Shown here: positions 14,555 through 50,015 of the stretch, piece by piece
Position numbering within the stretch: the stretch's first letter is position 1
Layout of the letters: every line of letters starts with the position of its first letter
DNA from: Deltaproteobacteria bacterium
GTDB lineage: Bacteria; Desulfobacterota; Binatia; HRBIN30; JACQVA1
DNA: 64,000 bases
Reading direction: 5' to 3'
NCBI GenBank assembly: GCA_016178705.1
Contig: JACOST010000028.1
Coordinates: 4,951-68,950 of the forward strand
The notes under the pieces: model-generated
Told to the model about the DNA's origin: nothing
The model's input: only the letters and a program-made list of their open reading frames with translations
Databases searched by the model: none
Made by a program: the position numbers and the translations under genes

Positions 14555-14585
14555 GCCGTCGAGCAGGAGTTGCTTACAACGGATT

Positions 14586-14616: not shown

Positions 14617-14640
14617 AATCGACAGGGAGGCCTTGGGCGT

Positions 14641-15108
14641 ATGAGCCAACATCCTCGACACTTTGACCGAATGACGGCGGCTGATCGTATCTTCAATCGT
14701 CTCTTCGGGGCACTTGTCGGACTCGGAGTCGGCCTGTCGCATAACTACTTACTGGAAGTACGTGGCCGGAAAACCGGGACCCTCTATTCAACCCCGATCG
14801 ATCTCTTGCGTCGAGAGAACCGACTCTTCTTGGTTGCGCCACGCGGATTCACGCAATGGGTCCGCAACGCGCTGGCGGCGGGCCGCGTGACGCTCAAGAA
14901 AGGTAGACAGCGGAACGAGTATCGTTTGCAGAATGTTGACGACGCGCAGAAACCGGAACTGCTCAAGGCGTATCTCGATCGCTTCAAACTGACCGTCCAG
15001 CGTTTCTTCCTCGTCCCAGCGGGCTCGCCGGTGGCGGGCTTCGTCCCCCTCATCGATCGCTACCCGGTATTCGAACTGGTGCGATCCGACGACACGCCGG
15101 GCCGATGA
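14641..15108 (+). CDS. Deazaflavin (F420)-dependent nitroreductase-like protein (DUF385 / PNPOx-like split barrel)
   Basis: 155 aa. NRLFLVAP...RNEYRLQNVDDAQKPELLKAY, typical of the DUF385 family. Confidence 0.6.
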   Translation: MSQHPRHFDRMTAADRIFNRLFGALVGLGVGLSHNYLLEVRGRKTGTLYSTPIDLLRRENRLFLVAPRGFTQWVRNALAAGRVTLKKGRQRNEYRLQNVDDAQKPELLKAYLDRFKLTVQRFFLVPAGSPVAGFVPLIDRYPVFELVRSDDTPGR

Positions 15109-15683
15109 AGACCGATCTCGCGAAACCGCGCTGCGGTTGGGCCACCCGCGATCCGCTCTACATCCGTTATCACGACGACGAGTGGGGCGTACCGGCGCAC
15201 GATGATCGGCGCTTGTTCGAATTTCTCATCCTCGAAGGCGCGCAGGCGGGATTGAGCTGGCTGACGATTCTCAAGAAGCGCGAGAACTATCGTCGCGCGC
15301 TGGCGCGCTTCGACGTAAAACGAGTGGCGACGTTCGGCGCAGCAGACGTGAAGCGTTTGCTCGCCGATGACGGCATCGTGCGCAACCGCCTGAAGATCGC
15401 AGCGACCATCGACAACGCGCGCGCGTTTCTCGCCGTGCGGAAGGAATATGGCAGCTTCGATCGCTTCGTGTGGTCGTTCACAGGCGGCCAGACGATTCAG
15501 AATCGCTGGCCGAGTCTGGCGCAAGTCCCCGCGCAGACCCCCGAGGCCGAGGCACTCAGCCGTGAGTTGAAGCGCCGCGGCTTTCGCTTCGTCGGTCCGA
15601 CGATCATGTACGCCTTCATGCAAGCGGTCGGGATGGTCAACGATCATGTCACGACGTGCTTCCGGCATCGGGAGTTGAGGTAG
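15105..15683 (+). CDS. tag: DNA-3-methyladenine glycosylase I
   Basis: RCGWATRDPLYIRYHDDEWGVP...FLILEGAQAGLSW. Conserved Cys/His zinc site. Confidence 0.9.
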   Translation: MKTDLAKPRCGWATRDPLYIRYHDDEWGVPAHDDRRLFEFLILEGAQAGLSWLTILKKRENYRRALARFDVKRVATFGAADVKRLLADDGIVRNRLKIAATIDNARAFLAVRKEYGSFDRFVWSFTGGQTIQNRWPSLAQVPAQTPEAEALSRELKRRGFRFVGPTIMYAFMQAVGMVNDHVTTCFRHRELR

Positions 15684-15732
15684 GTAGTGTCCTGTCTCAC
15701 GAGCGTCAGTAGCATGCGATCTTCTCTGAAGC

Positions 15733-15815
15733 GTAGGGGCGATGCATGCATCGCCCTCCGGCTTCTCCGCAGTGGACACGTCAATTCGCGGGCGACGCAT
15801 GCGTCGCCCCTACGG
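15733..15815. repeat. Inverted pair of REP-like palindromic units
   Basis: gtaggggcgatgcatgcatcgccctccgg ... cgcgggcgacgcatgcgtcgcccctacgg. Confidence 0.85.
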
Positions 15816-15975
15816 GGAAGGGGCAATCCGATGGAAACATCATCGCAACCACGTTCATCGACAATCTGCACAGGGACAGGGAGCCAGCAATTCACCACTA
15901 ACCGCTAACTCGGGCCATAGCGCTATGAGCGAGACGCACCACTAGAGAAGAGAGCAATCAGACTCGGGTGAGGGA

Positions 15976-17226
15976 ATGAAGAGCACTCCAAACAGCACCG
16001 GCGCACTCCTCTCTGGCGTGCGCATCATCGAAAGCTCGTTGCTCGGGCCCGCCGCAGTCGGGATGAACCTCGCCGATCTCGGCGCGGACGTGATCAAAGT
16101 CGAGAACCCCGGCGGCGACTACGTTCGCAAGATGGCGTTCCCGACCATCGACGAGGTGTCGCTGCTGCATTGGCACCTCAACCGCGGAAAGCGCAGCATC
16201 GTGCTCGACCTGCGCAAGCCGGAAGCCGTCGAGGCATATCTCGATCTCGTGCGCGATGCCGACGCGGTGATCGAAGCGATGCGGCCGGGAGCGCTGGCGC
16301 GCCGCGGACTCACGTTTGAGCGGTTGCAGGCCGTCAATCCGAAGATCGTCTTCTGTTCGATCTCGGGGTACGGCATGACCGGGCCGTACAAGGACATGCC
16401 GAGTCACGGCATCGCTTACGACGCGTGGGCCGGTGTCGCGCGGCCGACCGTCGACGCGAACGGCTTCCCGACGATCCCGAGTTACACCGCCGTCGGCATC
16501 AATGCCGGGCCGCTCTATGCCGCACTCGGCATTCTCGCGGCGATCATTCGCGCGCGTGCGACGGGTCGTGGTTGTCGCTTCGAAGTGGCGCAGAGCGACG
16601 CCGCGGCCGCGTTCAATTGGAACGGAATCGAAGGCAACAAGGCGTACGAGCGACCCGAAGACGAAGTGACCGGCAACGACGGCGACGGCAAGGGGCCGCG
16701 CCGCCCCGTTGGTGACAACAGCATGACCGAGTCGGTGCGCTATCAGTACTATCGTTCGAAGGACGGCATGGTTCTCTTCATGGCCTCGGAACGCGAGTTT
16801 TGGAAAAACTTCTGCGAGGGCATCGGACGACCCGAACTGTTCGCGCACAACCCCGGCTCGAAGTATGCCGACCACGCGCGCGGCAATGTCGCGCTGCGGC
16901 GCGAGCTAGCCACGATTTTCGCCACCAAGACCACGGCCGAGTGGCTCGCATTCGGGCTCAAGGTGAACACGCCGGTAGCCCCGGTGAACGATGTGAAGTC
17001 GATCACGCGCGATCCGCAGTTCGTCGCGCGCCTGCCGTTTCGCCCGCATCAGCAGCACGGCACCGAGCTGATGCCGTCACCGATCAAGTTGCTCGACGAA
17101 GAGCTGCCGGTCCCGTCCAAGGCCGCGGCGGTGCCGGGACATGACACCGCCGCGGTCCTGGCCGATGTGCTCGGCTACGATGCCGCGCGCATCGCCGCGC
17201 TGCGCCGCGCCGGCGCGCTTGGCTGA
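15976..17226 (+). CDS. CoA-transferase family III (CaiB/BaiF)
   Basis: N-terminal RIIE...GP...LADLGADVIKVE motif. 416 aa. Confidence 0.85.
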   Translation: MKSTPNSTGALLSGVRIIESSLLGPAAVGMNLADLGADVIKVENPGGDYVRKMAFPTIDEVSLLHWHLNRGKRSIVLDLRKPEAVEAYLDLVRDADAVIEAMRPGALARRGLTFERLQAVNPKIVFCSISGYGMTGPYKDMPSHGIAYDAWAGVARPTVDANGFPTIPSYTAVGINAGPLYAALGILAAIIRARATGRGCRFEVAQSDAAAAFNWNGIEGNKAYERPEDEVTGNDGDGKGPRRPVGDNSMTESVRYQYYRSKDGMVLFMASEREFWKNFCEGIGRPELFAHNPGSKYADHARGNVALRRELATIFATKTTAEWLAFGLKVNTPVAPVNDVKSITRDPQFVARLPFRPHQQHGTELMPSPIKLLDEELPVPSKAAAVPGHDTAAVLADVLGYDAARIAALRRAGALG

Positions 17227-19413: not shown

Positions 19414-22400
19414 TCAGAACTGCCAGCGGATCGGCAACCGCGGATCGGGGCGGTAGCTGCAGTAGGTCCCGGTCTTGATGGTGGTGGCGAGGTAGCGCCC
19501 AAGGTGGGCATCGCCGTCGCTGATGCGCTTGATCGTGGTCTTGATGGCGCGGGTCACGTTCACCCGCGCACGTTCGGCATCGGCGGCGCGTGCGGAGCCG
19601 CGGTTACCCAAGCCTGCGCCGGCCGCCAGTTGGTCGGCGAACATCTCGATCTCTTCGCGCAGTTTGCTCGCGCGCCCGAGGTCGTTAAATCGAGTCGCCT
19701 CGTCCAATTGGTCGCGCAGGTCTTCGATGCGCTGCTTGTCGGTGGTGCGTGCGCGCCCTTCGATTGCTGTCGCTGATGCCGTCGCCGGCGCCGCTAAATC
19801 AGTGGCGTGGAACTCGCGGCCGGGATGCTGCAGCAGTTGGCTGAGACAGCGCAGCCCCTTGGAATCCTTGAGGCGCAACAGAGTCGCGCCGCTACCGACG
19901 CTCCAGTACTGTCCCTCGAAGTGAAAGAGGCCGCGCACGCTGTCGAGTTGGTTGTCCTTCGCAGGTGACTGCTGGTGGTCAGAACCCGCGTGCGGCTCGG
20001 GTTGCCTGCGTTTGCTCTGCGGGCTGATCGTCCGAGCGGAACGCACGAGCCGGAGGCCTCCGCTCGCCGCCGCAACCGGGATCGGCTCTTCCAGTTCAGC
20101 GACAGCATGATCGCCCTCGGTGCGTACATCCAAGGTGCGCAGCTGCATCGCGAGGCTGACCATGCCGAGCGCTTCCGCTGTCGCGAGTGCGTGCGCCGCC
20201 AGGTCGCGCGCGCGCAGATGATCGCCGACGCGGCCGCGCGTCAACAGCGCGCAAGTGTAGGCGTACTGCGTGCGAGCGAGCCATGGTGGGCCGTCCATGC
20301 GGGCGTTGCGCGCCAATGCATCCTCGAAGTGCCGCGCCGCATCGTCCCATCGTGCCATCGTCGCCGCGAGGATGCCGAGATAGTGAGTCGCGGCACCGAA
20401 GCTGACGCTGGCCGCGTAGGCAATGGTGCTATCGACGTAGGGGAGCAACAGATCGTACAAGATGGCCGCGCGTCGATTATCGCGCAGGTATGCGCAGACT
20501 TCGGACAAGTACGGCAACACGCCCAGACGGCGTTCGCGCTGGAGATCGGCAAACTCGTGGTGCGCGACCTGTTCGAACTCGTAGCGGGCTTCCGCCTCCT
20601 GGTCCAACTCGCGGTGGACAAGTGCGAGAAATGTGCGCGGCACAGGGCTGAAGGGATAGCGTTCGACGAACACGTGGAGCATCGGCAACTGTCCTTCCAG
20701 TTGGCGGAGCTCGCGCTGTGCCACGAATGCTTGCACGAGGGGGTTGAGCCGAATCTCGGCGCGCTCGGCGAGCGGCGTGGCTTCCTGCGCGAGGGCGATG
20801 GCCTCGGTCCACTGTCCGCGCCACAGCGCTCGCATTGCGCGCAGGTTCGCGCCCATCCAGCGGTAGCGCGAACGACCCAACGCGGCGGCGAGCGGAGGAT
20901 AGGTTGCCAGCTCGGCGTCCAAACGATCGCCGTCACCGCCGTTCATCAGATCGATCAGGCGCCACATGCGCCCTTGGATCGCCAGCTCGCGGTCGCCGAG
21001 GCGATCGCCGAGTTGCGTAATCTCGTCGGCGATGGTGAGCCGGTCGGCGAGGTAGTCCGACCGCCACAGCACGAAGTGCTGCGCACTCAGCACGTGCGCC
21101 AGCGTCACCGGGTCGGCAAGCTCGCGCGCCATCGCCAGCGCGTGTCCAACCAAGGTGATGCCGCGCTCTCGATCGGAGACCGCCAGTTCCGCTGCCAAGC
21201 GCGCCAGCAAGCGGGCGCGCACAGCGGTCGGATCGCTGCCGAGGCCGGCGAGCGCTTCTTCGATCAGGGCCGCGACGGTGGGATCGGCGATGGATTGCGG
21301 CGCGCCGACCCCGCGGTCGGCGAAGCCGAGGGCGGCGCGCGCGAGCAGCGCCGGCGCCGCTAGGCGTCGAGCGATGGTGGCGGCGTGCGCAAACGTCGCG
21401 CGCGCGTCTTGATCGCGCCCACTGCCGAGTTGCGCTTCGCCGAGTCCGAGGAGCACCTCGCACCCCGCGGCATCCGTTTGGGTGTCGGTGAGGGCGAGCG
21501 CTTCGAGGGCGCGCTCGAACTGAATGGCGGCCTCTTCGTACGCGAACAGCGCGGCGGCGCGCTCCCCGGCGCGCACCGCGTAGCTGATGGCCTGGTGCGG
21601 ATCGCCGAGCGGTGTCGCGTGGAGAAAATGGTGCGCGATCTCGGCGTAGTGGGGTGCGAGATCGGCTGCGTCGAGTCGCTCCAAAATCTCCGCGACCTGT
21701 TGATGCATGCGGGCACGTTCACTCGGCGACAGATCACTGTACAACGTCTCGCGGATCAGCGTGTGCTGGAAGCTGTACCGCGACGATGCTCCGGGGAGCG
21801 TGGTGACGATGGCATTCGTGGACGCCTCGCCCAACAGATCGAGGAGCTGCGCCGCCGGTCGTTCGCACATCGCTAGCAGTGGTGCGAAGTCGAACTCTCG
21901 CCCGAGTACTGCGGCGATGTTGAGAACACGACGGCAGGCCGGTGAGAGTGGGCGCAAGCGCTGGCGGATCGCGTCGCCGACACCGTGCGGAATGGGCAAT
22001 CCATCGGGCGGGATCTCGGACAACCGAGCGGCGTGTTGCACGACCAATGTGCGCACCACTTCGTCGATGAAGAGCGGATTGCCTTCCGTTGTCTGATGCA
22101 CGGCTGCGACCACCGCGCGCGATGGCGCCAGCGCGAAGCCAGCCGTAATGAAGCGCGCGACATCATCGGCCGACAAGCCGCCGAGCGGCACGCGATGTCC
22201 TTCGCGGGCAATCGCCGCCAGCGTCTGCGCACACTCCGGGCGCGACGGCATCTCGATGTCGCGATACGTCCCGGCGATCAGCAGGTGCGCATCGCGCAGC
22301 TCGCGGGCGATGAACTGGAGCAGCAGGAGCGACGGTTGATCGGACGCGTGGAGGTCGTCGAGGATGAGCACAAGTGGACGCGCCGCGCCCGCACGCTTGA

Positions 22401-22926
22401 GCAGCCCACCGACGGCGCCGAACTGAGCGAAGCGCGCGTGTTCGGACGATAGCGCGGGTGGTGTCGGCGCCGGAAGATCCGGTTGCCACTCGATCAACTC
22501 GGGCACCAATTGCGCGATCAGCCCGGCCGTATCGCCGAGCAATTCGGTGCGCGCGGCGGGACCACGATCCCGCAGCACAGCGCGAATGATCTGCACCCAC
22601 GGCCAGTATGCGGGCGCTCCGCCACCTTCCCAACAGCGGCCCCAGAGAACCTGCGCGCCGCGCCGGGCGGCTTCGGCGGTCAGTTCCTCCGCGAGTCGCG
22701 TCTTGCCGATGCCGGGCTCGCCGGCGATGAGGAACACCCGCCCGCGCCCTGCCGCGGCATCGGCCAGTCCGGAGTAGAGTTCAGTGAGTTCGCGCTCGCG
22801 GCCAACAAACGATCGCGCCGTGAGCCGATGGAGCGCCTGGTTTGATTCGTTTTCCACCGGTTGTCCCGCGGCGTGCACTACTCTCGCCGCGGTCGCCTGT
22901 GTAGGTGCGGCGGCCGGGTTGGTCAA
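19414..22926 (-). CDS. Large AAA(AAA_16-like)-TPR regulator with an uncharacterised conserved C-terminal domain (paralog 1)
   Basis: Walker A LIAGEPGIGKTRLAEEL. Walker B LVLILDDLH. Long TPR/helical region. C-terminal ~200 aa (FEGQYWSVGSGATLLRLKDSKGLRCLSQLLQHPGREFHATDL...TTIKTGTYCSY) matches no domain I recognise, but is conserved in the downstream paralog. Confidence 0.8.
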   Translation of the reverse strand: MTNPAAAPTQATAARVVHAAGQPVENESNQALHRLTARSFVGRERELTELYSGLADAAAGRGRVFLIAGEPGIGKTRLAEELTAEAARRGAQVLWGRCWEGGGAPAYWPWVQIIRAVLRDRGPAARTELLGDTAGLIAQLVPELIEWQPDLPAPTPPALSSEHARFAQFGAVGGLLKRAGAARPLVLILDDLHASDQPSLLLLQFIARELRDAHLLIAGTYRDIEMPSRPECAQTLAAIAREGHRVPLGGLSADDVARFITAGFALAPSRAVVAAVHQTTEGNPLFIDEVVRTLVVQHAARLSEIPPDGLPIPHGVGDAIRQRLRPLSPACRRVLNIAAVLGREFDFAPLLAMCERPAAQLLDLLGEASTNAIVTTLPGASSRYSFQHTLIRETLYSDLSPSERARMHQQVAEILERLDAADLAPHYAEIAHHFLHATPLGDPHQAISYAVRAGERAAALFAYEEAAIQFERALEALALTDTQTDAAGCEVLLGLGEAQLGSGRDQDARATFAHAATIARRLAAPALLARAALGFADRGVGAPQSIADPTVAALIEEALAGLGSDPTAVRARLLARLAAELAVSDRERGITLVGHALAMARELADPVTLAHVLSAQHFVLWRSDYLADRLTIADEITQLGDRLGDRELAIQGRMWRLIDLMNGGDGDRLDAELATYPPLAAALGRSRYRWMGANLRAMRALWRGQWTEAIALAQEATPLAERAEIRLNPLVQAFVAQRELRQLEGQLPMLHVFVERYPFSPVPRTFLALVHRELDQEAEARYEFEQVAHHEFADLQRERRLGVLPYLSEVCAYLRDNRRAAILYDLLLPYVDSTIAYAASVSFGAATHYLGILAATMARWDDAARHFEDALARNARMDGPPWLARTQYAYTCALLTRGRVGDHLRARDLAAHALATAEALGMVSLAMQLRTLDVRTEGDHAVAELEEPIPVAAASGGLRLVRSARTISPQSKRRQPEPHAGSDHQQSPAKDNQLDSVRGLFHFEGQYWSVGSGATLLRLKDSKGLRCLSQLLQHPGREFHATDLAAPATASATAIEGRARTTDKQRIEDLRDQLDEATRFNDLGRASKLREEIEMFADQLAAGAGLGNRGSARAADAERARVNVTRAIKTTIKRISDGDAHLGRYLATTIKTGTYCSYRPDPRLPIRWQF

Positions 22927-23056: not shown

Positions 23057-24160
23057 TCAGTCCTTCGTCAAAGCGATCGCGAGCGCCAGCGGATGAAAGG
23101 GATCGCTGAACGAAACCTTTGAATACTGGCCGGCCAGACCGCCGGGGAAGAGCGAGTTCATAGTGAGGTTCTCGTTCGAGCTCCCGCCCGTCTTGTTGTA
23201 GAAAAATGCCCGCGGGCTCGCCACGGTTGCAATCACCGATGCGGTCGAAAGGAGATTCTTCTTGAGATCGGTGATCTTCAACTGCCCGCTGACCACTTCA
23301 ACTTTGATCTGCACTTGCCGATGATCGTTGGTCAGGTCGTTGTCGGCGTGACCGCTCCACGTACCGATCAAGTCGGCCGCGATACCGGGCGGATTGATGA
23401 GGCCGGTGGTCGGCGTCGCCGTCTGCGTCGGCAGATTGGTGTGCGTCGGGACCGGAGTGTTGGTCGGTATCAGTGACGTTGGCGTGATGGTCGGCGTCGG
23501 TGTTTGCGTCGCCGTCGGCGGGTGTGTTCGCGTCGGCGTAGGAGTGCTGCCGTCGCCGGTGACGATCGAACCCGTGAACACGGTACCGTCCAGGTTGACG
23601 CTGAGTGACCCGCCGCCGTGGAGACCGGGGAACGTACCGCCGAGATGGACGTTGTGAGTGCCGTCGCCGTCGGTGAAGCTGCCGTCGATGCTAAACGTGC
23701 CATTGTCGAGGTCGACCGAGCCGCTCAGCGACACGATCGCGATCACTGCGGCCGCGTTGCCCTGATCGAAGAGCGACGCCGACGCGGCTGAACGGATCGT
23801 CATGGTGCCGGTGACTTGGCCGTTGCCTTGTGCGACCAGATTGATGATGCCGGTCTGGCCATTGGCGAGCGCGACGGTACCGTAGAACTGGCCGGTGAAC
23901 GGACACGTCCCCAAGGCGTTGTTGACGGCGAGCACTAGCTCTTCAACTGTGACAGACTGGTCGTTGTTACTGTCGAATTGGTTGCACTGGGTGACCAAGA
24001 TGCTGCCGAGAGCGATGTTGACGCCCTGCACCAGCTCTTCGACCGTGACGACTCCGTCACTGTTGCAATCCCCATCGCATCCGGCGGCCAGCGCGCGTGG
24101 GCCGGTTGCTGCCAGTCCCAGCGCGGCCAATACGATCAACGTCCCGAATCGCTTGATCAT
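23057..24160 (-). CDS. Secreted protein with an N-terminal dockerin/EF-hand-like repeat pair, a Gly-rich beta domain, a Thr/Pro linker and a different ~130-aa C-terminal domain (paralogous N-terminal half to 17745..19304)
   Basis: Signal peptide MIKRFGTLIVLAALGLAATG. CDGDCNSDGVVTVEEL and DSNNDQSVTVEEL repeats. TPTPTRTHPPTATQTPTPT linker. RBS GGGGAGGA. Confidence 0.75.
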   Translation of the reverse strand: MIKRFGTLIVLAALGLAATGPRALAAGCDGDCNSDGVVTVEELVQGVNIALGSILVTQCNQFDSNNDQSVTVEELVLAVNNALGTCPFTGQFYGTVALANGQTGIINLVAQGNGQVTGTMTIRSAASASLFDQGNAAAVIAIVSLSGSVDLDNGTFSIDGSFTDGDGTHNVHLGGTFPGLHGGGSLSVNLDGTVFTGSIVTGDGSTPTPTRTHPPTATQTPTPTITPTSLIPTNTPVPTHTNLPTQTATPTTGLINPPGIAADLIGTWSGHADNDLTNDHRQVQIKVEVVSGQLKITDLKKNLLSTASVIATVASPRAFFYNKTGGSSNENLTMNSLFPGGLAGQYSKVSFSDPFHPLALAIALTKD

Positions 24161-24196
24161 GATGATCCTCCCCAGTCGGGGGGGCGTAACAAATCG

Positions 24197-24223
24197 TTGA
24201 ACAGTGTTCAATTCGGTTGAACG
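24197..24223. promoter_or_regulatory. Candidate operator: perfect palindrome TTGAACAGTGTTCAA plus a downstream TTGAAC half-site, ~40 bp upstream of the start of 23057..24160
   Basis: Seen in sequence. Near-identical to the site at 19372..19397. Confidence 0.55.
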
Positions 24224-24310
24224 AATGAAAATTTTGGCTTGTAGGTGTGCAATCATCGCTCGCCATCTCGTGGCTTGCACAAGAAGAATTGAGCGATCTC
24301 CCCGCTCGTC

Positions 24311-24378
24311 ATTCCGGCGAAAGCCGGAATCCAGGCACGGACCCCACGCGTCGCCTGGATACCGGCCTTCGCCGGTAT
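24311..24378 (-). terminator. Two tandem hairpins downstream of regulator paralog 2
   Basis: attccggcgaaagccggaat at 24311-24330 and ataccggccttcgccggtat at 24359-24378. Confidence 0.35.
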
Positions 24379-24434
24379 GACGACCCACTGTGAAAGCGCG
24401 TTGAGCAGGGACAAACGCGCCCAAACAATTCCAG

Positions 24435-27400
24435 CTACAAGCGCCAGCTCTTCGGCCAACGTGGATCGGGTGTGTAGGAACAGAACGTGCCGGTCTTGAT
24501 GGTGGTGCTGAGATGCCGGCCCAACGCTGAATCGCCGTCGGCAATTCGTTTCAGCACCGCTTTGATGGCGCGGGTGACGTTGACGCGAGCGCGTTCGGTT
24601 GCCGATGGCCCGCTGCGTGTACGACCGTGCAGACCAACCGCCCGCGCGAGTTCGCGCGTCAGAAACTCGATCTCGTTTTGTGTGCTGGTAATCCGCCCGA
24701 GGTCGTTGAAGCGGGTGGCTTCTTCCAACTCTGCGCGAAGACTTTGCAACTGGCGCTTGTATGCCGCCCGTGCTTGCGGGTCCAGCAGTGCCCCAAGGTC
24801 GCCGAGATTGCCGGCGCGCAACCCGAGTTGTTGCCGTTGCTCGTCGCTGAGTTGGTCGATCTGCGCCGCGGCGGGAGTCACACTGTCGGGCTTGTGAGCG
24901 ATCAAGTCGAGCGCATGAAATTCCCGGCTTGGGTGGCGCAAGAGATGTGCGATGTAGCGCAGACCCTTGGTGTCCTTGAGGCGGAGTGGGGCCATCCCTT
25001 CGCCGACGGTCCAGAACTCCCCTTCCAGACGAAAGCTGCACTCGGCAGTCGTAGCGCCGGTGGTCGCCGGGGAATGCTGCGGTGGAGCCGCGGTGATGGC
25101 TCGCCCGCGGTGTTTCGCCGGGAAACTCAGCACGCGGCCGCGAGTGGAAGCGCCCGACGGCTCCGCATCGTGCAGCGCGGAGGCATCGCCGCTGGCGAGC
25201 GCGCGGGTGATCGGTTCGCGCTGCTGCGCCGATGACGGCTCCAGACGCGCTACGTCGGCCAATGCTTGCGCGCGCTCGGCGAGCGGCGTCATCCCCAACT
25301 CGCGCGCGGTGTCGTGGGCGTGCTGCAACAGATCGCGCGCGTGTTCGCGGGAATTCGCGGCACGGAGCGCGGGCCCCGCATCCACTAGCATGCGAGCGTA
25401 GGCGTACTCGGTGGCGGCCACCGCCGGCCGGCCTCCGGCGGCTAGACTGCGCGCGCGCGCATCTTCGAAGTGTTTCGCGGCCTCATCCCATCTCTCCAAG
25501 GTTGTGGCCAGGAGACCGAGGGCGTGGAAGCCCGGGCCGAAGCAGTGCCGCGGACCGAACGAGATGAAGCGCGAACCAAACCGGAACAGTCGCTCATACA
25601 GCAGGGCCGCCGCGTGGCGATCGCCGAAGTGCGCGCACAGCTCCGCCAACCACGGCAGCATCGGTAGGAGCGCGTTGGTGCGCACGAGATCGACGAAGTC
25701 GTCGGCCGCCAGGCGACCGTACTCGGCCCGGGCCTCGGCGTCGTGTCCCTGGTCGATCTGTATCAACGCCAGCGCGCAGCGGATGATCGGCACGTGCGGC
25801 ATCTGTTCGACCCCGCGCCGCGCGATCATTTCCGCGACCTCGTACTGGCCGAGCGCCCGCTTCGCCACGTAGGCCTGAAAGCCGACGCTGCCCAGCGCAG
25901 TGTCGTCGCGCACCCGCTCGGCGAGTGCGCCAATCTCTTGGCCAAGCGCGTCGCTTTCGGCGAAGCGCCCGAGCCACAGGGCACGCATCGCTCGCAGCAT
26001 GATGGTGTTGCTGAGGTAGCGGGGTTGGCGCAGCTCGTCGGCGAGTCGACTGCACGCGTCGAGTTCGCGTTCCCACTCGCCGCCACCCACTCCCATCTCA
26101 ATGACGTCGAGCAACCGCCAGGTGTGCGCTTGCAGTGCAAGCTCACGATCGTCGGCACTCTCGGCGAGCTGAATGCCCTCGTTGGCGAGGCTGAGCCGCT
26201 CGTCGACGTCGGGCGAATCCCACAGCGCGAAATGGCGCGCATTGACGGCGTAGGCCAAAGCCGCCGACTGGCCGCAGCGGCGCGCCATCTCGACCGCTTG
26301 CCGGCTCAGTGCGGCGCGCCGCTCCTCGGCGTCCGAGAAGTACAGTTCGGCCGCCAGCCGCGCCAGTATCCGTGCGCGCAGAGGATGGTCGTGCTCGGCC
26401 AACCGCACCAGCGCTTCTTCGAGCGCGGCCACCAGAACCGGGTCGACGACTCCACCGCGCGGCAGTCCGTGACCGATGCCGCCGAGCGCGAGCACCGCCC
26501 GCGCGAACGAGTCGGACGCATTCGCGTACCGTGCGCGCTCTGCCGCACGCAGAAACGTCTCCCGCGCCTCGCTGGTGTGCCAGGCGCGCGCCTGCGCGTT
26601 GCCCAACGCCAGCAGCAGCTCGAACTCCCGCTGGGGGTCTGGGGCCCCGAGGACGAGGGCGTCGAGAGTGCGTGTGTAGTGCGCTGCCGCGTCTTCGTAC
26701 GCCAACAAGTCCGCCGCGCGGCGCCCGGCGCGCTCACCGTAGGTGATGGCCTTGGTCAGGTCGCCGGCGGGCGCGGCCTGGAGAAAATGATGGGCGAGCT
26801 CGGCGACATGGGCGTCGGGGTCGGTGGCCGACAGCGTCTCCAACACCTCGCCGATGCGTTGGTGCAAACTCAAACGTTGTGCCGCCGGCAGATCGTCGTA
26901 CACGGTCTGCCGAATCAGCATGTGCGTAAAACTGTACCGAGTGGTGATCCCCGGTAGCTTGGTGACGATGCCCGCGGTGATCGCTTCGCTGAGGATGTCG
27001 AGGACGTCGGGTGCGGGCAGCTCGGACACCCGTTGCAGCGTCAGCAGATCGAAGTCGCGACCGATCACCGCGGCTATGCTCACCACGCGCTGACAGGTCG
27101 CCGACAGCGGTCGCAGCCGCTCGTGCGTGACTTCACGAATCCCGGCTGGAATCCTCAGGCGCTCCGCGGTCGCATCAGCGAGTGTCAGGTCGCGTCCTTC
27201 TGCCAGCAGCCAGCGCACGACTTCATCGACGAAAAATGGATTGCCGTCAGTGGTGCGGTGCAGGGTCGTGATGACCGCGGGCGGTGGCGCGATCACAAAC
27301 GTGCGTTGAATAAAATGAGCGACGTCGGGTTCGGGCCAGCCGCTGAGTGGTAGGCGGTGGCCGTTGCGGGCCACGTCGCTCAGCAGGCGCGCGCACTCAG

Positions 27401-28166
27401 GTTGACGTCGCACCTCGACCTCACGGTAGGTGCCGATCAGCAGCACTCGCGCGCTGCGCAGTTCCCGTGCGGCGAACTGCAGCAACAACAGCGACGGGTC
27501 ATCGGCCGCGTGCAGATCGTCGAGCAGGATCACGAGCGGCTGGTCCACTGCCACCCGCTGCAGGAACGTGGTCGTCGCATCGAACAACGGAAAGCGGGCC
27601 TGTTCGGACTCGATCGTCGACGCCTGCGATCCGGCCGGAATGCCGGCCACGCGCTGTCGCAGGTCGGGCACCAGGGACGCGATGCACGACGCCCCGCCGC
27701 CGAGATGGTGCGCAAGTGCGTGTGGATCACGGTCGCGGATCAACGCGCGCAGGATCTGGATCCACGGCCAAAAGGCCGGCGCGCCGCCGCCTTCCCAACA
27801 CCGGCCCCACAGCACCTGCGCGCCACCGGCGCTCGCCGTTGCGGCGAGTTCTTCCGCCAGCCGCGTCTTGCCGATGCCCGGCTCGCCGACGATGAGGAAG
27901 ACGCGGCCGCGCCCGTTCAGCGCGTCGTCGAGTCCGGTGCGTAGCTCTGTCAGCTCGCGGTCGCGGCCGACGAAGGCGCGCGTGCCCGGGCGATCGGGGT
28001 CGGCGCTGGTGGTTGTCTGCCGAGGGTCACTCACGTGGGGTTGGTTAGTACGTGATCGGACGCATACGTCAAGAGACGAATGCCCGAGTCGCCGACAATC
28101 GCGGACGCGCTGTCCGTGGTTTCGCTTTCGGCGGGCTCGCGCTAGGGATGCGAGCCACAGTGCCAC
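24435..28166 (-). CDS. Large AAA(AAA_16-like)-TPR regulator with the same uncharacterised C-terminal domain (paralog 2). The true start may be the in-frame GTG at ~28034
   Basis: LIVGEPGIGKTRLAEEL, LVILLDDLH and TPR region are collinear with paralog 1. The C-terminal FRLEGEFWTVGEGMAPLRLKDTKGLRYIAHLLRHPSREFHALDL...TTIKTGTFCSY matches paralog 1. Confidence 0.8.
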   Translation of the reverse strand: MALWLASLARARRKRNHGQRVRDCRRLGHSSLDVCVRSRTNQPHVSDPRQTTTSADPDRPGTRAFVGRDRELTELRTGLDDALNGRGRVFLIVGEPGIGKTRLAEELAATASAGGAQVLWGRCWEGGGAPAFWPWIQILRALIRDRDPHALAHHLGGGASCIASLVPDLRQRVAGIPAGSQASTIESEQARFPLFDATTTFLQRVAVDQPLVILLDDLHAADDPSLLLLQFAARELRSARVLLIGTYREVEVRRQPECARLLSDVARNGHRLPLSGWPEPDVAHFIQRTFVIAPPPAVITTLHRTTDGNPFFVDEVVRWLLAEGRDLTLADATAERLRIPAGIREVTHERLRPLSATCQRVVSIAAVIGRDFDLLTLQRVSELPAPDVLDILSEAITAGIVTKLPGITTRYSFTHMLIRQTVYDDLPAAQRLSLHQRIGEVLETLSATDPDAHVAELAHHFLQAAPAGDLTKAITYGERAGRRAADLLAYEDAAAHYTRTLDALVLGAPDPQREFELLLALGNAQARAWHTSEARETFLRAAERARYANASDSFARAVLALGGIGHGLPRGGVVDPVLVAALEEALVRLAEHDHPLRARILARLAAELYFSDAEERRAALSRQAVEMARRCGQSAALAYAVNARHFALWDSPDVDERLSLANEGIQLAESADDRELALQAHTWRLLDVIEMGVGGGEWERELDACSRLADELRQPRYLSNTIMLRAMRALWLGRFAESDALGQEIGALAERVRDDTALGSVGFQAYVAKRALGQYEVAEMIARRGVEQMPHVPIIRCALALIQIDQGHDAEARAEYGRLAADDFVDLVRTNALLPMLPWLAELCAHFGDRHAAALLYERLFRFGSRFISFGPRHCFGPGFHALGLLATTLERWDEAAKHFEDARARSLAAGGRPAVAATEYAYARMLVDAGPALRAANSREHARDLLQHAHDTARELGMTPLAERAQALADVARLEPSSAQQREPITRALASGDASALHDAEPSGASTRGRVLSFPAKHRGRAITAAPPQHSPATTGATTAECSFRLEGEFWTVGEGMAPLRLKDTKGLRYIAHLLRHPSREFHALDLIAHKPDSVTPAAAQIDQLSDEQRQQLGLRAGNLGDLGALLDPQARAAYKRQLQSLRAELEEATRFNDLGRITSTQNEIEFLTRELARAVGLHGRTRSGPSATERARVNVTRAIKAVLKRIADGDSALGRHLSTTIKTGTFCSYTPDPRWPKSWRL

Positions 28167-44665: not shown

Positions 44666-47600
44666 TCAGTCCGCATCCCACGCGACCGCGTGGATTCGCT
44701 GCGGTTCGGTGATGCCCTTGAGCGCTACCTCGCGAGGCGCGCCGAAGCGCGCTGCCGTGTCGCCGGTGGCCGCCTGCAACGCCGCCGACACCAGGATCTC
44801 ACCGCCTTGCGCCGTGCCGGCGATGCGCGCGGCGAGCACGACGTTCTTGCCGAAGAAGTCGTCGGCCTCGCGAATCACTTCGCCGGCGTGCAAACCGATG
44901 CGGACGCGCAACGGCTCGTCCGCATGCCGTTGATTGTAGGCGGTGAACCCTCGTTGCATGGCGATGGCGCAGTGCAGGGCGCGCCGCGCACTCTGGAAGA
45001 CGATCATGAAACCATCGCCTTGCGATTTCACTTCGACGCCGTTGTGGGCTGCGACGTGCTCGCGCACGATCGCGTTATGGGCGCGCAACACGTCGAGCCA
45101 TTTTCGGTCGCCGAGACGCTCGTTGATCACGGTCGAACCCTCGATGTCGCTGAACATGAGCGTGACCGAGCCGTCGCTCGCCGCAACCGAACGCAGATCG
45201 GGGCGGTGGCGTTGCACGTCCGCGGCGACGACCTCGATCGAGGTGGTCATCGTGCCCGACTCCACGCCTTGCGCGCGCAGCTTGAGTGCCAGCGCCATGT
45301 CGAGCCAGCCCTTGAGCCCGAGTTCCTGCGACGTGGCGAGCGCCGCGCCGAGAAGGACGCGCGCCTGCTCACGATCGCCCGGCCCGTCGCGGTCGAGCCG
45401 CATGCGAGCGTAGTCGATCTGCGTGCGCGCTTCCCACGCGCGCGCGCCGAGCCGGCGATCCATCGCCAGCGCGTCTTCGAAGTGCCGCGCCGCGCCCTCG
45501 TAGTAGCGCATGACGCCCGCTAGGTTACCGAGGGCGCGCGTGGCTGCGCCGTAGGTGGTGGCGTGGGCAAAGTGTAGATACAGTTGTTCGTACGGCAACA
45601 GAGTCCGGTACAGCTCTTTCGCACACTCGGAGTCTCGCAGCAGCGTGCAGGTGTCGGCGAGGAGCGCAAGATTCATCAAGTAGTTGCTGTCACGTAAAGT
45701 TGCGAAGCCGGCCTGCGCGATGCGATCGAACTCCGCCCGCGCTTCCGCGTCGCGAGCGAGCTCGGCTAGGTAGCAGGCGAGATGGATGGAGTAGCCCTCG
45801 ACATTCGGGTACAGATCCCGGCCGCGGCGGGTGCCGCGTTCGACCTCGGTCAACCGACCTTGGAAGCGCCGCAGCGCGCCGACCTGCGTAACGAAGACCT
45901 GAAATGCTGCTTCGGGCGCATGCTCTCGTCGCCCCAATGCGGCCTGAATGCACCGTTCCGCTTCATCGAGATGGCCTCGCCACAGAGCGCGGTCAGCCAA
46001 CGTCTGATCCACAATGCGGACGAAGTCCCGTTGTCTGAGCTCGACCGCCAGACGCTGCAAATGAACAAGCTCACGATCCACGCCTTCGCCGTCTCCGCTC
46101 CGAATGCACTCGCGGAGGATGTTGGTCCGCGTGCGGAACTCCTGCTCGCGGTCACCGGTCTCGACAGCCAAACGCAGCGACTCGGTCAACAAGCCCCGCC
46201 GCTCGTCGCTCCGTACCGACAAGCCGAGGAAGAACACGCTGGCTTGCAAATGAATGGCAACCCGGAGCGACTCAGGGTCGTCAATCGAGCGCGCCAGGTC
46301 GATCGCATGCCAGAGTCGAGCATCCCGGTCGTCATTCGTTTCGACCCAACCGCGGACCACCGTGAGCGCGTACAGTATCCGCACGCGCAGCAGGGTGGGG
46401 GCATCTCCGAGTCGCTCCATCGCCTCGTTGAGAGCCTGGCTGCGCTCATCGATCGCGGACATGCTGAAAGGCGTCCCCACATTAATGGCCAGCCCGAGCG
46501 CGGCCCGCGCGAAGAGTTCCGCGTCATCCAGTTCGCGTGCGAGTGCGAGTGCACGCCGATCAGCCTCGTCCGCCTTCGGCACCGAGCCGGAGCAGATTTC
46601 CGCCGTCGCGAGCGCGAGCAGGATCTCGCACCGGCGCCGGCCGTCGACGGTCGTGCCGACCTCAAGAGTCTGCAACGCCCGCTCGTAGTGGTTGGCGGCT
46701 TCCTCGAAGGCGAGCAGGGCGCTCGCGCGCTCGGCGGCGCGCACCGCGTAGTCGACGGCCTTGCCGACGTCGCCGCCGGGCGCGGCCTCGCAGAAGTGAT
46801 GCGCCAGCTCGGCGAGATGCGGCTCGGGCTTGGTGCCGTAGAGCGCTTCGAGCACCTCGGCGGCGCGGCGATGTGAGCGAATGCGCTGGGCAGTGCGCAG
46901 CTCGCCGTAGAGCGTCTCGCGGATCAACGCGTGCGAGAAGCGGTAACGGCCGGCAACCGGCGGCAGCGGGGCGATGATGCGTGCGGCTTCGGCTTCATCG
47001 AGCGCTTCGGCAACTGCGTCGACGGACAATTCACTGACGCCGGGGAGCACGCGCAGCTCGAACTCACGACCGAGTACCGCCGCGATCGTCAGCACCTGGT
47101 TGCAGCGTTCGGAGAGCGTGCTGAGTCGCCGGCCAATCACTTGCCGGACGCCTTGCGGAATCTCGACGCTCCACGATGCCACGGTGTCGGCTCGATCGAG
47201 ACGCCCGTCCGACTGTAAGAGGCGCACGACCTCGGTGATGAAGAAGGGATTGCCTTCGGTCTCGCGGTACACCGCCTCTACGAGTGCAGGTGGTGGTGTA
47301 CGGCCGGCGGTCAACTCGATGAAGCGCGCCACGTCGTCGCCGCTCAAACCGCGCAACAGCACACGTTCGCCGCGCTGATTGCGTACCAATTCGGCGAGCG
47401 TCTGTTCCAGCGGATGCTGGCGGCCGAGCTCGACGTCGCGATAGGTCCCCATCAGCAGCAGACGGGCGTCGCCGATTTCCCGCGCCAGGAATTCGAGCAA
47501 CAGTAACGACGGCTTGTCCGCCCAATGGAGATCGTCGAGCACGACGACCAGCGGTTTGGCGCGCGATGCGTTCCTGAGAAACGTGGTGACGCTTTCGAAC

Positions 47601-49147
47601 AGGCGGAACCGCGCTTGTTCCGGTTCGAGCCGGGGAGCGACCGGCAAGCCCGGTAATCGGTCCCGCACCTCGGAGACCACTTCGGCGATGTCGGCCGCGC
47701 CCGGACCCATCTCCGCGGCGAGCAGTTTCGGTTCGCGCGTGTGCACATAGGCGCGGATCGCGTTGACCCACGGCCAATACGCCGGCGCGCCCTCGCCTTC
47801 GTGGCAACGCCCCCACAGCACTTGCGCGCCACGCATCTGCGCGTAGGTGGCGAGTTCTTCCGCGGTGCGGGTCTTGCCGATACCAGGTTCGCCGACGAGG
47901 AGAAGAATCCGGCCGCGGCCGGAGAGTGCGTCATCGAAGGCGGCGCGCAGTTGCTGGGTTTCCTTGTCGCGCCCCACGAAAATGCCGCTGGCGAGGCGAT
48001 CCAGTGGATTCACCGCCGGGCTTGACGCTGGTATCACTCCGGCGACGGCGCTCGGAGCGTTGGCGATTTGCGCGAGTCGCTCGCCAACGATCGCCGCGCT
48101 GGCGGGGCGCTGCGCTGGACTCTTCGCGAGCAATTGCAAGGTGAGCGCTTCCAGCTCGCGCGTGATGGCTGGATTGTGCCACGAGGGCGCGACCGGCGGT
48201 GTGTTGATGTGTTGGCTGATCACCGCGACCACATCGTCACCGAGAAAGGGTGGCCGGCCGGTCAGCAATTCGTACAGCAGTGCGCCGAGCGCGTAGAGGT
48301 CGACGCTGGCAGTCACCTCGCCGGACAGGGCCTGTTCAGGTGCCATGTAGGCGGCAGTGCCGACCATCGTCCCCATCTGCGTCAGGCGCGTCTGATCAAT
48401 GTCGAGCGCGAGACCGAAGTCCCCGAGCTTGGCGCTGCCGTCAGCGGCGAGCCACACGTTGCCGGGCTTGAGGTCGCGATGGATGACGCCTCGTGCGTGC
48501 GCGTGATCGAGCGCGAGGCAGATTTGCTGGGCGATGCGCAGGGCGTCGGTGATGGATAGGGGTGCACGGCTATGCGCCGCTACAGACTCTTCGCTGCCTA
48601 CTGCTCTCTGCCTACCGCCTACTGATTCACGCAGCAGATCATCCACGCTGCCGCCAGCCATGTACTGACTGACGATGTAGGCTTGTCCGTCCTCCTCGCC
48701 GATGTCGAAAACGGTGACGATGTGGGGATGATCGCCAAGCCGCGCCATCGCTTGCGCCTCGCGCTGAACGCGCGCGCGGCCCGCGTCGTCGAGCCCTTCG
48801 GTTTTGATCAACCCGAGCGCGACGTCGCGATCGAGCCGATGGTCGCGGGCGAGGTAGACGCGCTTGCGCGCGCCTTCGCCGAGGAGGCGCTGCACCCGAT
48901 AACGTCCGGAGGCGAAGGCAGCAGGCAGGTTGTTCGTGGTTAGGTTGTTGGTTGTTTGTGGAGGAGGGGCACTACCGATTGCGGTCGGCGTACCGGCTCC
49001 CAGTGAGGCACCACATTCGCCGCAGAACTTCTCTCCCGACTCGTTGAATGCTTGGCACTGTGGGCAGCGCAGCGCGAGCAGCGCGCCGCAGTCCGAGCAG
49101 AACATCCGACCTTCACGATTGTCGCGACCGCACGTTGCGCAACGCAT
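44666..49147 (-). CDS. Multidomain signalling protein: N-terminal double zinc-ribbon, Ser/Thr protein kinase, AAA(AAA_16-like) ATPase, TPR region and C-terminal class III adenylyl/guanylyl cyclase
   Basis: CxxC x4 at the N-terminus. HRDLKPGNV and DFGLA kinase motifs. LLVGEPGIGKTRTAEEL. C-terminal VTLMFSDIEGST...GDGFMIVF...RIGLHAGEV cyclase motifs. The ATPase-TPR core is ~collinear with the two regulators at 19-28 kb. Confidence 0.85.
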   Translation of the reverse strand: MRCATCGRDNREGRMFCSDCGALLALRCPQCQAFNESGEKFCGECGASLGAGTPTAIGSAPPPQTTNNLTTNNLPAAFASGRYRVQRLLGEGARKRVYLARDHRLDRDVALGLIKTEGLDDAGRARVQREAQAMARLGDHPHIVTVFDIGEEDGQAYIVSQYMAGGSVDDLLRESVGGRQRAVGSEESVAAHSRAPLSITDALRIAQQICLALDHAHARGVIHRDLKPGNVWLAADGSAKLGDFGLALDIDQTRLTQMGTMVGTAAYMAPEQALSGEVTASVDLYALGALLYELLTGRPPFLGDDVVAVISQHINTPPVAPSWHNPAITRELEALTLQLLAKSPAQRPASAAIVGERLAQIANAPSAVAGVIPASSPAVNPLDRLASGIFVGRDKETQQLRAAFDDALSGRGRILLLVGEPGIGKTRTAEELATYAQMRGAQVLWGRCHEGEGAPAYWPWVNAIRAYVHTREPKLLAAEMGPGAADIAEVVSEVRDRLPGLPVAPRLEPEQARFRLFESVTTFLRNASRAKPLVVVLDDLHWADKPSLLLLEFLAREIGDARLLLMGTYRDVELGRQHPLEQTLAELVRNQRGERVLLRGLSGDDVARFIELTAGRTPPPALVEAVYRETEGNPFFITEVVRLLQSDGRLDRADTVASWSVEIPQGVRQVIGRRLSTLSERCNQVLTIAAVLGREFELRVLPGVSELSVDAVAEALDEAEAARIIAPLPPVAGRYRFSHALIRETLYGELRTAQRIRSHRRAAEVLEALYGTKPEPHLAELAHHFCEAAPGGDVGKAVDYAVRAAERASALLAFEEAANHYERALQTLEVGTTVDGRRRCEILLALATAEICSGSVPKADEADRRALALARELDDAELFARAALGLAINVGTPFSMSAIDERSQALNEAMERLGDAPTLLRVRILYALTVVRGWVETNDDRDARLWHAIDLARSIDDPESLRVAIHLQASVFFLGLSVRSDERRGLLTESLRLAVETGDREQEFRTRTNILRECIRSGDGEGVDRELVHLQRLAVELRQRDFVRIVDQTLADRALWRGHLDEAERCIQAALGRREHAPEAAFQVFVTQVGALRRFQGRLTEVERGTRRGRDLYPNVEGYSIHLACYLAELARDAEARAEFDRIAQAGFATLRDSNYLMNLALLADTCTLLRDSECAKELYRTLLPYEQLYLHFAHATTYGAATRALGNLAGVMRYYEGAARHFEDALAMDRRLGARAWEARTQIDYARMRLDRDGPGDREQARVLLGAALATSQELGLKGWLDMALALKLRAQGVESGTMTTSIEVVAADVQRHRPDLRSVAASDGSVTLMFSDIEGSTVINERLGDRKWLDVLRAHNAIVREHVAAHNGVEVKSQGDGFMIVFQSARRALHCAIAMQRGFTAYNQRHADEPLRVRIGLHAGEVIREADDFFGKNVVLAARIAGTAQGGEILVSAALQAATGDTAARFGAPREVALKGITEPQRIHAVAWDAD
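48594..48624. repeat. TAGGCAG-like heptamer array embedded in-frame inside the kinase domain of 44666..49147
   Basis: ctgcctactgctctctgcctaccgcctactg encodes VGGRQRAVGSEE on the minus strand. Confidence 0.7.
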
Positions 49148-49233
49148 CCCCTACTCCTGGGTGACGCGGGATAGGACGGTGGTGTTCAACGACACGGGTC
49201 TCCGCGCCCCTCACGACGCCACATCGCGGGAAC

Positions 49234-49623
49234 TCACGCTGTCTTCAGGCCCAAATGGTCGACCATCGGATCGAAGTCGCGATCGGAGTAGAGCAGCGGC
49301 AATTTCCGCTCAATGCAGTAGGTGCCGATCATCACGTCGACCGTCTTTCGCACCGTCACGCCGGCGGCGCGCAGCGCGCGGTAGTTGCGTGCGGCGCGAA
49401 CGGCCAGGGTAGGACCGAACATGCTGACCACGGGGAACACTCTGAGCAGGCGGTATGCACGGCCAAACGCCTGCTCGCTCCGGAAACCTTGTAACACCTC
49501 GGTCAGCACGAGATCACCAATCACGATGGGTTGCTCTCCGAGCGCTTCGTGGAGTCGGTCGGTTTGCGGTGTCGCGCGACCGTTGAAGTAATCGATCCAC
49601 ACCGACGAATCGACGGCGATCAT
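49234..49623 (-). CDS. vapC: Type II toxin VapC (PIN-domain ribonuclease)
   Basis: MIAVDSSVWIDYF...TEVLQG...PIN acidic residues. 4-bp overlap with the upstream antitoxin. Confidence 0.85.
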   Translation of the reverse strand: MIAVDSSVWIDYFNGRATPQTDRLHEALGEQPIVIGDLVLTEVLQGFRSEQAFGRAYRLLRVFPVVSMFGPTLAVRAARNYRALRAAGVTVRKTVDVMIGTYCIERKLPLLYSDRDFDPMVDHLGLKTA

Positions 49624-49820
49624 GCACGGCCATCGGCTCGCATGGCGTCCAGATCACCCTCCCAGCGCAGCTTGCCGCGCCACGCCTTGAGCGCGCGCTG
49701 GCGTTGCAAGCGCACGAGCACGCGGAGCCCTTCCTCCACAACGGCTCGCTTGGTCCGGATGCCGGTGGCTCGCTGCGCTGCGGCGATCAGCTTCTCATCA
49801 ATCACGATGTTGGTTCGCAT
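49620..49820 (-). CDS. vapB: Type II antitoxin VapB
   Basis: 66 aa. MRTNIVIDEKLIAAAQRATG. RBS GGGGAGA. Confidence 0.75.
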   Translation of the reverse strand: MRTNIVIDEKLIAAAQRATGIRTKRAVVEEGLRVLVRLQRQRALKAWRGKLRWEGDLDAMRADGRA

Positions 49821-50015
49821 GCATCTCCCCTCGATGTGTATGAGCGAGCATACGTATACACACTCTTGGTGCGAGCGACAACGATTTCGTTCTATGCAGG
49901 ATGGCGGCGAGAAACGTGCGGCGACGCCGAATCGCCGCACCGCGAGGATGCGCTCGGAGGCGTGATCGAGGCGGGCGATGCCAGAACGACATCGCCCGCC
50001 CGTGTGTGCGGATGC

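Follow-up and report, generated by a model that had tools for sequence, protein, structure and literature searches.

The window analysed here is a stretch of 64,000 nucleotides (~65% G+C) from a Deltaproteobacteria bacterium assembly (contig JACOST010000028.1), and the gene under study is a minus-strand open reading frame (ORF) of 1493 codons with an ATG start at 44666..49147. Its product joins a double zinc ribbon, a Hanks-type Ser/Thr kinase, a STAND-type NTPase with a tetratricopeptide repeat (TPR)-like sensor and a class III nucleotidyl cyclase in one chain. As a fusion, it belongs to a widespread, uncharacterised family of the known STAND multidomain signalling proteins; the feature that raises it above routine annotation is a relocated, WNK-like lysine in the kinase domain, found throughout a clade of such kinases. 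The computational observations given below cover the domain make-up, the core fold, how well catalytic residues are conserved, the relocation of the lysine and the lack of conserved gene partners. The features of the gene are the following.

44666..49147, minus strand: whole gene, 1493 amino acids (aa); identical to NCBI protein MBI1816733.1, 'MAG: protein kinase [Deltaproteobacteria bacterium]', encoded on an 850-kb contig
49154..49158, minus strand: Shine-Dalgarno-like AGGAG, 7-11 nucleotides (nt) 5' of the ATG, read directly from the sequence
49010..49141, minus strand: double zinc ribbon, residues 3-46, four CxxC pairs (Pfam DZR, 1.4e-08)
48902..49009, minus strand: low-complexity Pro/Thr/Asn-rich linker, residues 47-82, poorly conserved
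48086..48901, minus strand: Hanks-type Ser/Thr kinase domain, residues 83-354 (Pfam Pkinase, 9.1e-47)
48863..48865, minus strand: codon of K95 in the Gly-rich loop GEGARK, aligned with WNK1 K233; candidate catalytic lysine
48812..48814, minus strand: codon of G112 at the canonical beta3 VAIK lysine position, aligned with PknB K40 and WNK1 C250
46898..47995, minus strand: STAND nucleotide-binding oligomerisation module, residues 385-750 (P-loop NTPase, helical domain and winged helix)
45272..46897, minus strand: TPR-like superhelical sensor domain, residues 751-1292, the region most divergent between paralogs
45179..45262, minus strand: conserved pre-cyclase segment, residues 1296-1323, common to the N-terminus of Ma1120 (alignment from Ma1120 residue 17)
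44714..45178, minus strand: class III nucleotidyl cyclase domain, residues 1324-1478 (Pfam Guanylate_cyc, 2.5e-20)

An earlier reading of this DNA, made from the letters alone (the sequence-only reading), had listed a zinc ribbon, a kinase, an ATPase, a TPR region and a cyclase in this protein. All five were recovered, as four Pfam matches and a modelled TPR-like solenoid, and the motifs that it had quoted (HRDLKPGNV, DFGLA, LLVGEPGIGKTRTAEEL, FSDIEGST, GDGFMIVF and RIGLHAGEV) were all found in the translation. The kinase scored 160.1 bits against a Pkinase gathering cut-off of 31.7 and the cyclase 73.3 bits against a Guanylate_cyc cut-off of 21.9, which places them among the Hanks-type kinases and the class III cyclases respectively; AAA_16 was matched at residues 390-565 (E 9.7e-33), and no TPR was called by Pfam in the 1493-aa protein. 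The N-terminus fits the homologue consensus MxCxSC, and all eight cysteines of the zinc ribbon were observed in 83 of 120 homologues, the homologue set used throughout being the 120 best matches in a 5.8-billion-protein collection. A linker of ~35 residues, itself poorly conserved, tethers the zinc ribbons, which could modulate the kinase by analogy with the rubredoxin-like domain of PknG. The segment at residues 1296-1323 may transmit the signal to the cyclase. No transmembrane segment was found in the protein, where no hydrophobic stretch reaches transmembrane level, and the gene product is a large cytoplasmic signalling protein.

The catalytic residues of the kinase were found to be highly conserved with one exception. 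Residues D225 (HRD), N230, D243 (DFG) and E130 (alphaC) align with D138, N143, D156 and E59 of PknB, while T256 is the counterpart in the alignment of PknB T171, the activation-loop phosphosite; these five residues and the APE motif are kept in every aligned homologue. The beta3 VAIK lysine, however, is missing. Alignment with StkP, PknB and WNK1 places G112 at this position, which was observed to be Ala in 109, Ser in 6 and Gly in 3 of the 118 aligned homologues. Instead, the third glycine of the Gly-rich loop is replaced by a lysine (K95, in GEGARK as against GRGSFK in WNK1), and this position is Lys in 118/118 aligned homologues. The sequence-only reading had pointed to the HRD and DFG motifs, which are present together with the alphaC Glu, and had missed both the exchange of the beta3 lysine for G112 and the presence of K95. 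K115, the only other conserved lysine nearby, was considered as a substitute and was rejected because this position, an ordinary Arg of the PknB/StkP 'VLR', is Asp in the Solirubrobacterales members.

The same arrangement was observed in all the kinases of related loci in which the Gly-loop region is present (33/33 with the Gly-loop lysine and no beta3 lysine), whereas four outgroup kinases on similar cores are canonical (GxGGMG together with VAIK). An exhaustive search of 1.8 billion representative proteins with the kinase domain only, from which the best 150 representatives were examined, gave a clear boundary: a Gly-loop lysine without a beta3 lysine was found in 85/85 domains at 47.8% identity or above and in 0/146 domains at 45% identity or below. 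Judged from these alignments, the relocation is clade-wide and sharply bounded, and the gain of the Gly-loop lysine covaries perfectly with the loss of the beta3 lysine. The clade comprises 84 representative proteins, where 64 are visibly fused to the STAND core, 27 have a C-terminal cyclase and 7 carry the kinase and the cyclase without the core. These core-less proteins (P0297, P0328, P0326, P0338, P0311, P0330 and P0316) have kinases of the WNK-like clade and are 510-1029 aa long, some of them possibly being fragments. In P0302, the cyclase precedes the kinase.

In common with the WNK kinases of eukaryotes, this kinase has a lysine at the third glycine of the Gly-rich loop and none in beta3. 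The two differ in that WNK has a DLG motif, which forms part of its chloride-binding site, where the present sequence is GDFGLA, invariant in the family. They also differ in descent, as the nearest solved relatives of the kinase domain are the bacterial StkP (2.8e-54) and PknB (~1e-50), followed by PknE and PknA, and no WNK was found among its best 60 PDB matches. The likeness to WNK is convergent. WNK kinases are active although they lack the beta3 lysine, and a 2007 survey found the Gly-loop-lysine arrangement to be unique to WNK among functional protein kinases (PMC1821047). A search of the bacterial kinase literature, which was not exhaustive, gave no description of Gly-loop-lysine kinases in bacteria; a 2025 review of bacterial pseudokinases and a kinase-atlas preprint refer to WNK solely as a eukaryotic example and contain no cyclase-fused or Gly-loop-lysine family. 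The kinase is predicted to be active, with K95 serving as the ATP-anchoring lysine. We regard it as an evenly balanced proposition that at least 84 clusters (at 50% identity) of so far undescribed bacterial Hanks kinases have convergently adopted the WNK solution, most of them fused to one STAND-TPR core and many with a class III cyclase.

Among proteins of known structure, the one nearest to the cyclase domain is Ma1120 of Mycobacterium avium (E = 6.4e-45), with similarity that starts ahead of the catalytic domain. The metal-binding residues D1334 and D1378 are Asp in 120/120 homologues and the transition-state arginine (R1441) is present in 119/120. The substrate-specifying residues K1374 and D1430 align with K101 and D157 of Ma1120 and form the Lys/Asp pair that specifies ATP, which is kept in 84/120 homologues. 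About 32 of the 120 were observed to have Glu plus Lys/Arg in place of this pair (columns 1374 and 1430; P0001-P0120), so that nucleotide preference may vary within the family, with subgroups differing in the nucleotide used. The transition-state asparagine, four residues before the arginine, is replaced by V1437. The residue at this position is variable in the 120 homologues, with I in 87, N in 28, V in 4 and T in 1, and 26 of the 28 Asn-bearing homologues also keep the Lys/Asp pair. The sequence-only reading had named two Asp, an Asn and an Arg as the residues on which catalysis depends; both Asp and the Arg are present, and the loss of the Asn had escaped it.

This loss has a precedent in Ma1120, an experimentally active adenylyl cyclase with the same pair, Ala164 in place of the Asn and R168, in which the exchange of Ala164 for Asn reduced or abolished activity (PMC4215837). 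Since Ma1120 is active with the same residue pattern, the cyclase domain is predicted to be an adenylyl cyclase. Ma1120 differs in being a stand-alone enzyme of 210 aa, whereas the domain described here serves a STAND protein of 1493 aa as its C-terminal output. Neither of the two catalytic deviations (G112 and V1437) marks a dead enzyme, because for both there are precedents with measured activity, namely the WNK kinases and Ma1120.

The core between the two enzymes required a fold comparison because sequence searches gave no solved relatives beyond the TPR part: a single-sequence search found none, and a 40-sequence profile matched only TPR proteins in the PDB. Residues 385-1300 were modelled with AlphaFold2 on the basis of 44 sequences (mean predicted local distance difference test score (pLDDT) 86.1, predicted template modelling score 0.68). 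The model consists of an alpha/beta NTPase domain, a helical domain, a winged helix and a TPR-like solenoid of ~27 helices, the last covering region 750-1292 with a mean pLDDT of 86. The top Foldseek match in the PDB was PH0952, a STAND protein with a tetratricopeptide repeat sensor (E = 6.8e-13, 742 columns), and further matches were Apaf-1, SAMD9, CED-4, NLRP3 and plant NLRs, as well as the nucleotide-binding oligomerisation domain (NOD) of MalT. The order of nucleotide-binding domain, helical domain, winged helix and repeat sensor is that of the STAND fold, and both order and fold are shared with PH0952 of Pyrococcus horikoshii and MalT of E. coli, which have a TPR/SUPR sensor, although sequence identity to the core is only 12-17%. 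MalT differs in its output, a LuxR DNA-binding domain as against two enzymes here. The core is a STAND-type P-loop NTPase of the MalT-like kind and not a classical AAA+ unfoldase; the sequence-only reading had called it an AAA ATPase, a name that is correct as to the P-loop NTPase but loose, as the fold matches assign the module to the STAND type.

The nucleotide-binding residues of the core were also found to be highly conserved. Walker A (GEPGIGKT, G419-T426) is invariant and the Asp pair of Walker B (VVLDD, D538-D539) is present in 119/120 homologues, while R570 and the winged-helix residue H739 are invariant or nearly so. H739, which lies in the predicted winged helix, would correspond to the His that contacts the nucleotide in other STAND proteins. 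In the model described for PH0952 and MalT, a closed ADP-bound monomer is held by contacts between the sensor and the NOD; an inducer opens this monomer, and the ATP-bound form multimerises and activates its targets (PMC6468293).

Two further genes in the window encode paralogs of this core.

19414..22926, minus strand: paralog 1, STAND-TPR core followed by a C-terminal module of ~200 aa; no kinase and no cyclase
24435..28166, minus strand: paralog 2, STAND-TPR core followed by the same C-terminal module; no kinase and no cyclase

The core aligns with paralog 1 at 42% identity over 935 aa with 31 gap positions (BLASTP, E = 6e-169) and with paralog 2 at 43% over 924 aa (E = 0), while the two paralogs are 45% identical to each other over 1200 aa, their whole length. 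A paralogous core in the three proteins had been claimed by the sequence-only reading and holds under alignment statistics. Its wording that the cores align nearly residue for residue is right as to collinearity and overstated as to identity, which is highest in the NTPase domain (53-55%), intermediate where the helical domain and the winged helix lie (44-45%) and lowest midway along the TPR region (29-31%). Given this uneven identity along the core, the switch is common to the paralogs, while what each of them senses has probably diverged.

The C-terminal module of the paralogs (19414-20136 and 24435-25190, minus strand) matches no Pfam family and has 634 database relatives, with the consensus FRxEGEYWTV...LKDTKGLxYLAHLLRHPGxEFHVLDL...TIKTGTFCSYTPDP. 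It also occurs alone or fused to receiver, GAF, AAA_16, cyclase, zinc-ribbon or hydrolase domains, a distribution as expected of an output domain. No PDB entry was matched significantly in a fold search with its AlphaFold2 model (mean pLDDT 79; best E = 0.13). The top matches, non-significant and to be read as a hint only, were almost all winged-helix DNA-binding domains of the OmpR/PhoB type, and on the strength of these modelled likenesses the module may bind DNA and be an undescribed DNA-binding output module. The label 'regulators' which the two paralogs had been given is plausible but weakly supported.

All 120 best matches align with the query along its entire length at 51-87% identity and carry Pkinase, AAA_16 and Guanylate_cyc, most of them with the zinc ribbon in addition. 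Among species-representative genomes, full-length copies were found in metagenome-assembled genomes (MAGs) labelled as Chloroflexota/Dehalococcoidia, Solirubrobacterales, Acidimicrobiia and other Actinomycetota, and also in MAGs labelled as Myxococcota, 'delta proteobacterium' and Acidobacteriota. No cultured isolate occurs among the best 80 loci. The kinase-core-cyclase fusion is common in uncultured soil and sediment bacteria, as represented in metagenomes. Some MAG contigs carry tandem kinase-core(-cyclase) genes (two copies at 7926-12428 and 12669-16325 in locus L002, and likewise in L034); the family therefore expands locally in other genomes too.

Six architectures were observed across 80 related loci: core without kinase or cyclase (38), (zinc ribbon)-kinase-core-cyclase (22), kinase-core (14), core-cyclase (5), cyclase-core (4) and kinase-cyclase-core (1). 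Varied end modules are a general property of this STAND core clade, which bears out the swapping of input and output modules on a shared core that the sequence-only reading had described. Its further view that the architecture is unusual did not hold, as the same domains occur in 120/120 best matches, full-length copies occur in MAGs labelled as several phyla and a related family has been curated as TIGR03903. In addition, fusions of a kinase with a MalT-like region (M. tuberculosis), with a cyclase-like domain (Pkn2 of M. xanthus) and with TPR and GGDEF domains were catalogued in 2005 (PMC1262709). Overall, the observation made in that reading is confirmed and its first interpretation is partly supported.

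The gene is directly preceded, on its own strand, by a toxin-antitoxin pair, VapB (49620-49940) and the PIN-domain toxin VapC (49234-49623), at 86 nt from the gene start; genes for an OmpA-family protein and an AsmA/DUF748 protein also lie upstream on this strand. Downstream lie convergent genes, whose products are a SnoaL-like protein, a beta-lactamase-fold protein, hydrolases and oxygenases. The ORFs that flank the gene in the window and its counterparts at 20 full-length loci were clustered, and no gene neighbour conserved across phyla was found in this set; synteny is confined to closely related Solirubrobacterales genomes. The gene therefore looks self-contained. Elsewhere in the window, an ORF of weaker coding signal between the two paralogs (23057-24400, minus strand) probably encodes a secreted protein with a signal-peptide-like start MIKRFGTLIVLAALGLAA, dockerin/EF-hand-like repeats DCNSDGVVTVEELV and DSNNDQSVTVEELV and a Thr/Pro-rich linker. 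The region 4815-10435 (minus strand) resembles an alternative complex III cluster, with a multihaem cytochrome c, a 1015-aa molybdopterin/4Fe-4S subunit, an NrfD-like subunit and ActD, and a SCO1/SenC gene lies near it. No Rfam match was found in the window.

Several known systems share part of this layout. PknK of M. tuberculosis has the same domain order at its N-terminal end, a Hanks kinase followed by a MalT-like NTPase/helical region (PMC1262709). PknK, compared here from the literature, differs in having neither zinc ribbon nor cyclase. Its beta3 lysine is canonical (K55), whereas the present clade has the Gly-loop lysine. A 'PknK' family with several attached domains also appears in the bacterial kinase atlas preprint. 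The mycobacterial proteins Rv0386, Rv1358 and Rv2488c likewise join a class III cyclase to an AAA_16/TPR STAND core, but their cyclase is N-terminal and a LuxR helix-turn-helix output is C-terminal; in the 1493-aa protein the cyclase is C-terminal, the kinase is N-terminal and no GerE/LuxR match was found with Pfam. Earlier examples of fusions of a kinase with a cyclase-type enzyme are Pkn2 of Myxococcus xanthus, which differs in being a membrane protein without the STAND core, and the kinase-TPR-GGDEF protein of Clostridium thermocellum, where the messenger is cyclic di-GMP (PMC1262709).

With somewhat better than even confidence, we propose that the protein is an inducer-gated STAND hub in which multimerisation switches on both cyclic AMP (cAMP) synthesis and kinase autophosphorylation; the nucleotide product, the activity of the kinase and each mechanistic step we infer from the residues and folds described above. 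The switch would consist of the MalT-like nucleotide-binding oligomerisation module and the TPR sensor, with the double zinc ribbon and the Hanks-type Ser/Thr kinase at its N-terminal end and the predicted adenylyl cyclase of class III at its C-terminal end. At rest, the TPR sensor would keep the ADP-bound NTPase module closed and the protein monomeric. Binding of an inducer to this sensor would lift the autoinhibition and be followed by exchange of ADP for ATP and then by multimerisation. The multimer would pair the cyclase domains into the dimer required for class III catalysis, with cAMP as the product expected from the Lys/Asp pair. It would also join the kinase domains, allowing trans-autophosphorylation at Thr256 and then phosphorylation of substrates, where the kinase would use Lys95 of its Gly-rich loop in a manner convergent with WNK.

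A number of points weigh against this proposal. Loss of the beta3 lysine is the usual definition of a pseudokinase. The kinase might also act on the input side and regulate the switch instead of being one of its outputs. No FHA, PP2C or cyclic-nucleotide-binding protein is encoded in the window. The close relatives of the protein all come from metagenome-assembled genomes, and no experimental study of any family member was found in the literature. Mammalian cyclases are less active when the transition-state Asn is lost (cited within PMC4215837).

The points concerning the two enzymes lead to alternatives in which only one of them is catalytic. If the kinase domain were a pseudokinase, it would serve the STAND switch as a regulatory nucleotide-binding, dimerisation or scaffold module and the cyclase would be the sole catalytic output. 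The beta3 lysine is indeed missing from the 1493-aa protein and from every clade member examined, and large surveys have classed bacterial kinases without it as pseudokinases, some families of which retain HRD or DFG (PMC12599244). However, HRD, N230, DFG, the alphaC Glu and the activation-loop Thr are fully conserved here, which is unusual for a non-catalytic domain, and the Gly-loop lysine is strictly coupled to the loss of the beta3 lysine as in the active WNK kinases (PMC1821047). We therefore consider a pseudokinase unlikely. The converse, that the cyclase is dead or very weak and acts as a nucleotide-binding or dimerisation module while the kinase is the real output, draws on V1437, which takes the place of an Asn required in mammalian cyclases, and on the Ile found there in 87/120 homologues. 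The active Ma1120 has Ala at that position and is impaired when Asn is restored, both metal-binding Asp are invariant, and the Arg (119/120) and the Lys/Asp pair (84/120) are largely kept, which makes a dead cyclase very improbable.

Two other alternatives place the protein in a different process. Among bacterial immune sensors, STAND NTPases with a repeat sensor form a major class, and Apaf-1, NLRP3 and plant NLRs are among the fold matches of the core. The protein might accordingly be an anti-phage or conflict sensor like Avs or the bacterial NLR-related proteins, in which the TPR region would recognise a phage protein and the kinase and cyclase would be effectors that arrest or kill the cell. 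Three paralogs inside 30 kb whose sensor region is the most divergent part, together with the VapBC pair directly upstream, would suit such a role. On the other hand, the three STAND cores drew no match from the PADLOC models, whose hits were confined to the generic kinase domain. Conserved neighbours of a defence type were not found, and the adjoining genes are metabolic and envelope genes. Moreover, the whole protein including the sensor is 51-59% identical in homologues labelled as different phyla, a better fit to a housekeeping signal than to an arms race, and we consider a defence role improbable, if slightly less so than a dead cyclase. Membership of the TOMM kinase/cyclase fusion family TIGR03903, with a role in the biosynthesis or control of thiazole/oxazole-modified peptides (TOMM), has in its favour that no other NCBIfam model matches the protein better (298 bits, E = 1.4e-88), that both paralogs match it too, and that in this family, likewise, one polypeptide combines kinase and cyclase with a homologous NTPase/helical core. 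The score of 298.1 bits is nevertheless far under the curated cut-off of 705.75, as it is for nine other clade members including core-less kinase-cyclase proteins, and the best-scoring matched stretch is the NTPase/helical core only. The model positions matched indicate that in TIGR03903 the cyclase lies between the kinase and the core, the kinase-cyclase-core order that the family description also gives, which differs from the order observed here, and no cyclodehydratase or precursor-peptide gene lies nearby. Membership was rejected on score, domain order and gene context, and a role of this kind is scarcely credible.

Automated pipelines that define pseudokinases by the loss of the VAIK lysine would misclassify the entire clade. 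If the kinases of the clade are active, the WNKs would no longer be the sole functional protein kinases without a beta3 lysine. In WNK, the relocated lysine accompanies direct sensing of anions at the active site, and a comparable regulatory use is conceivable in bacteria. Ser/Thr phosphorylation and cAMP on one ligand-gated switch would offer a compact system for studying how STAND multimerisation activates enzymes that require dimerisation. If the kinase is active, the protein would be a single-chain device in which the sensing of one ligand leads both to protein phosphorylation and to cAMP.

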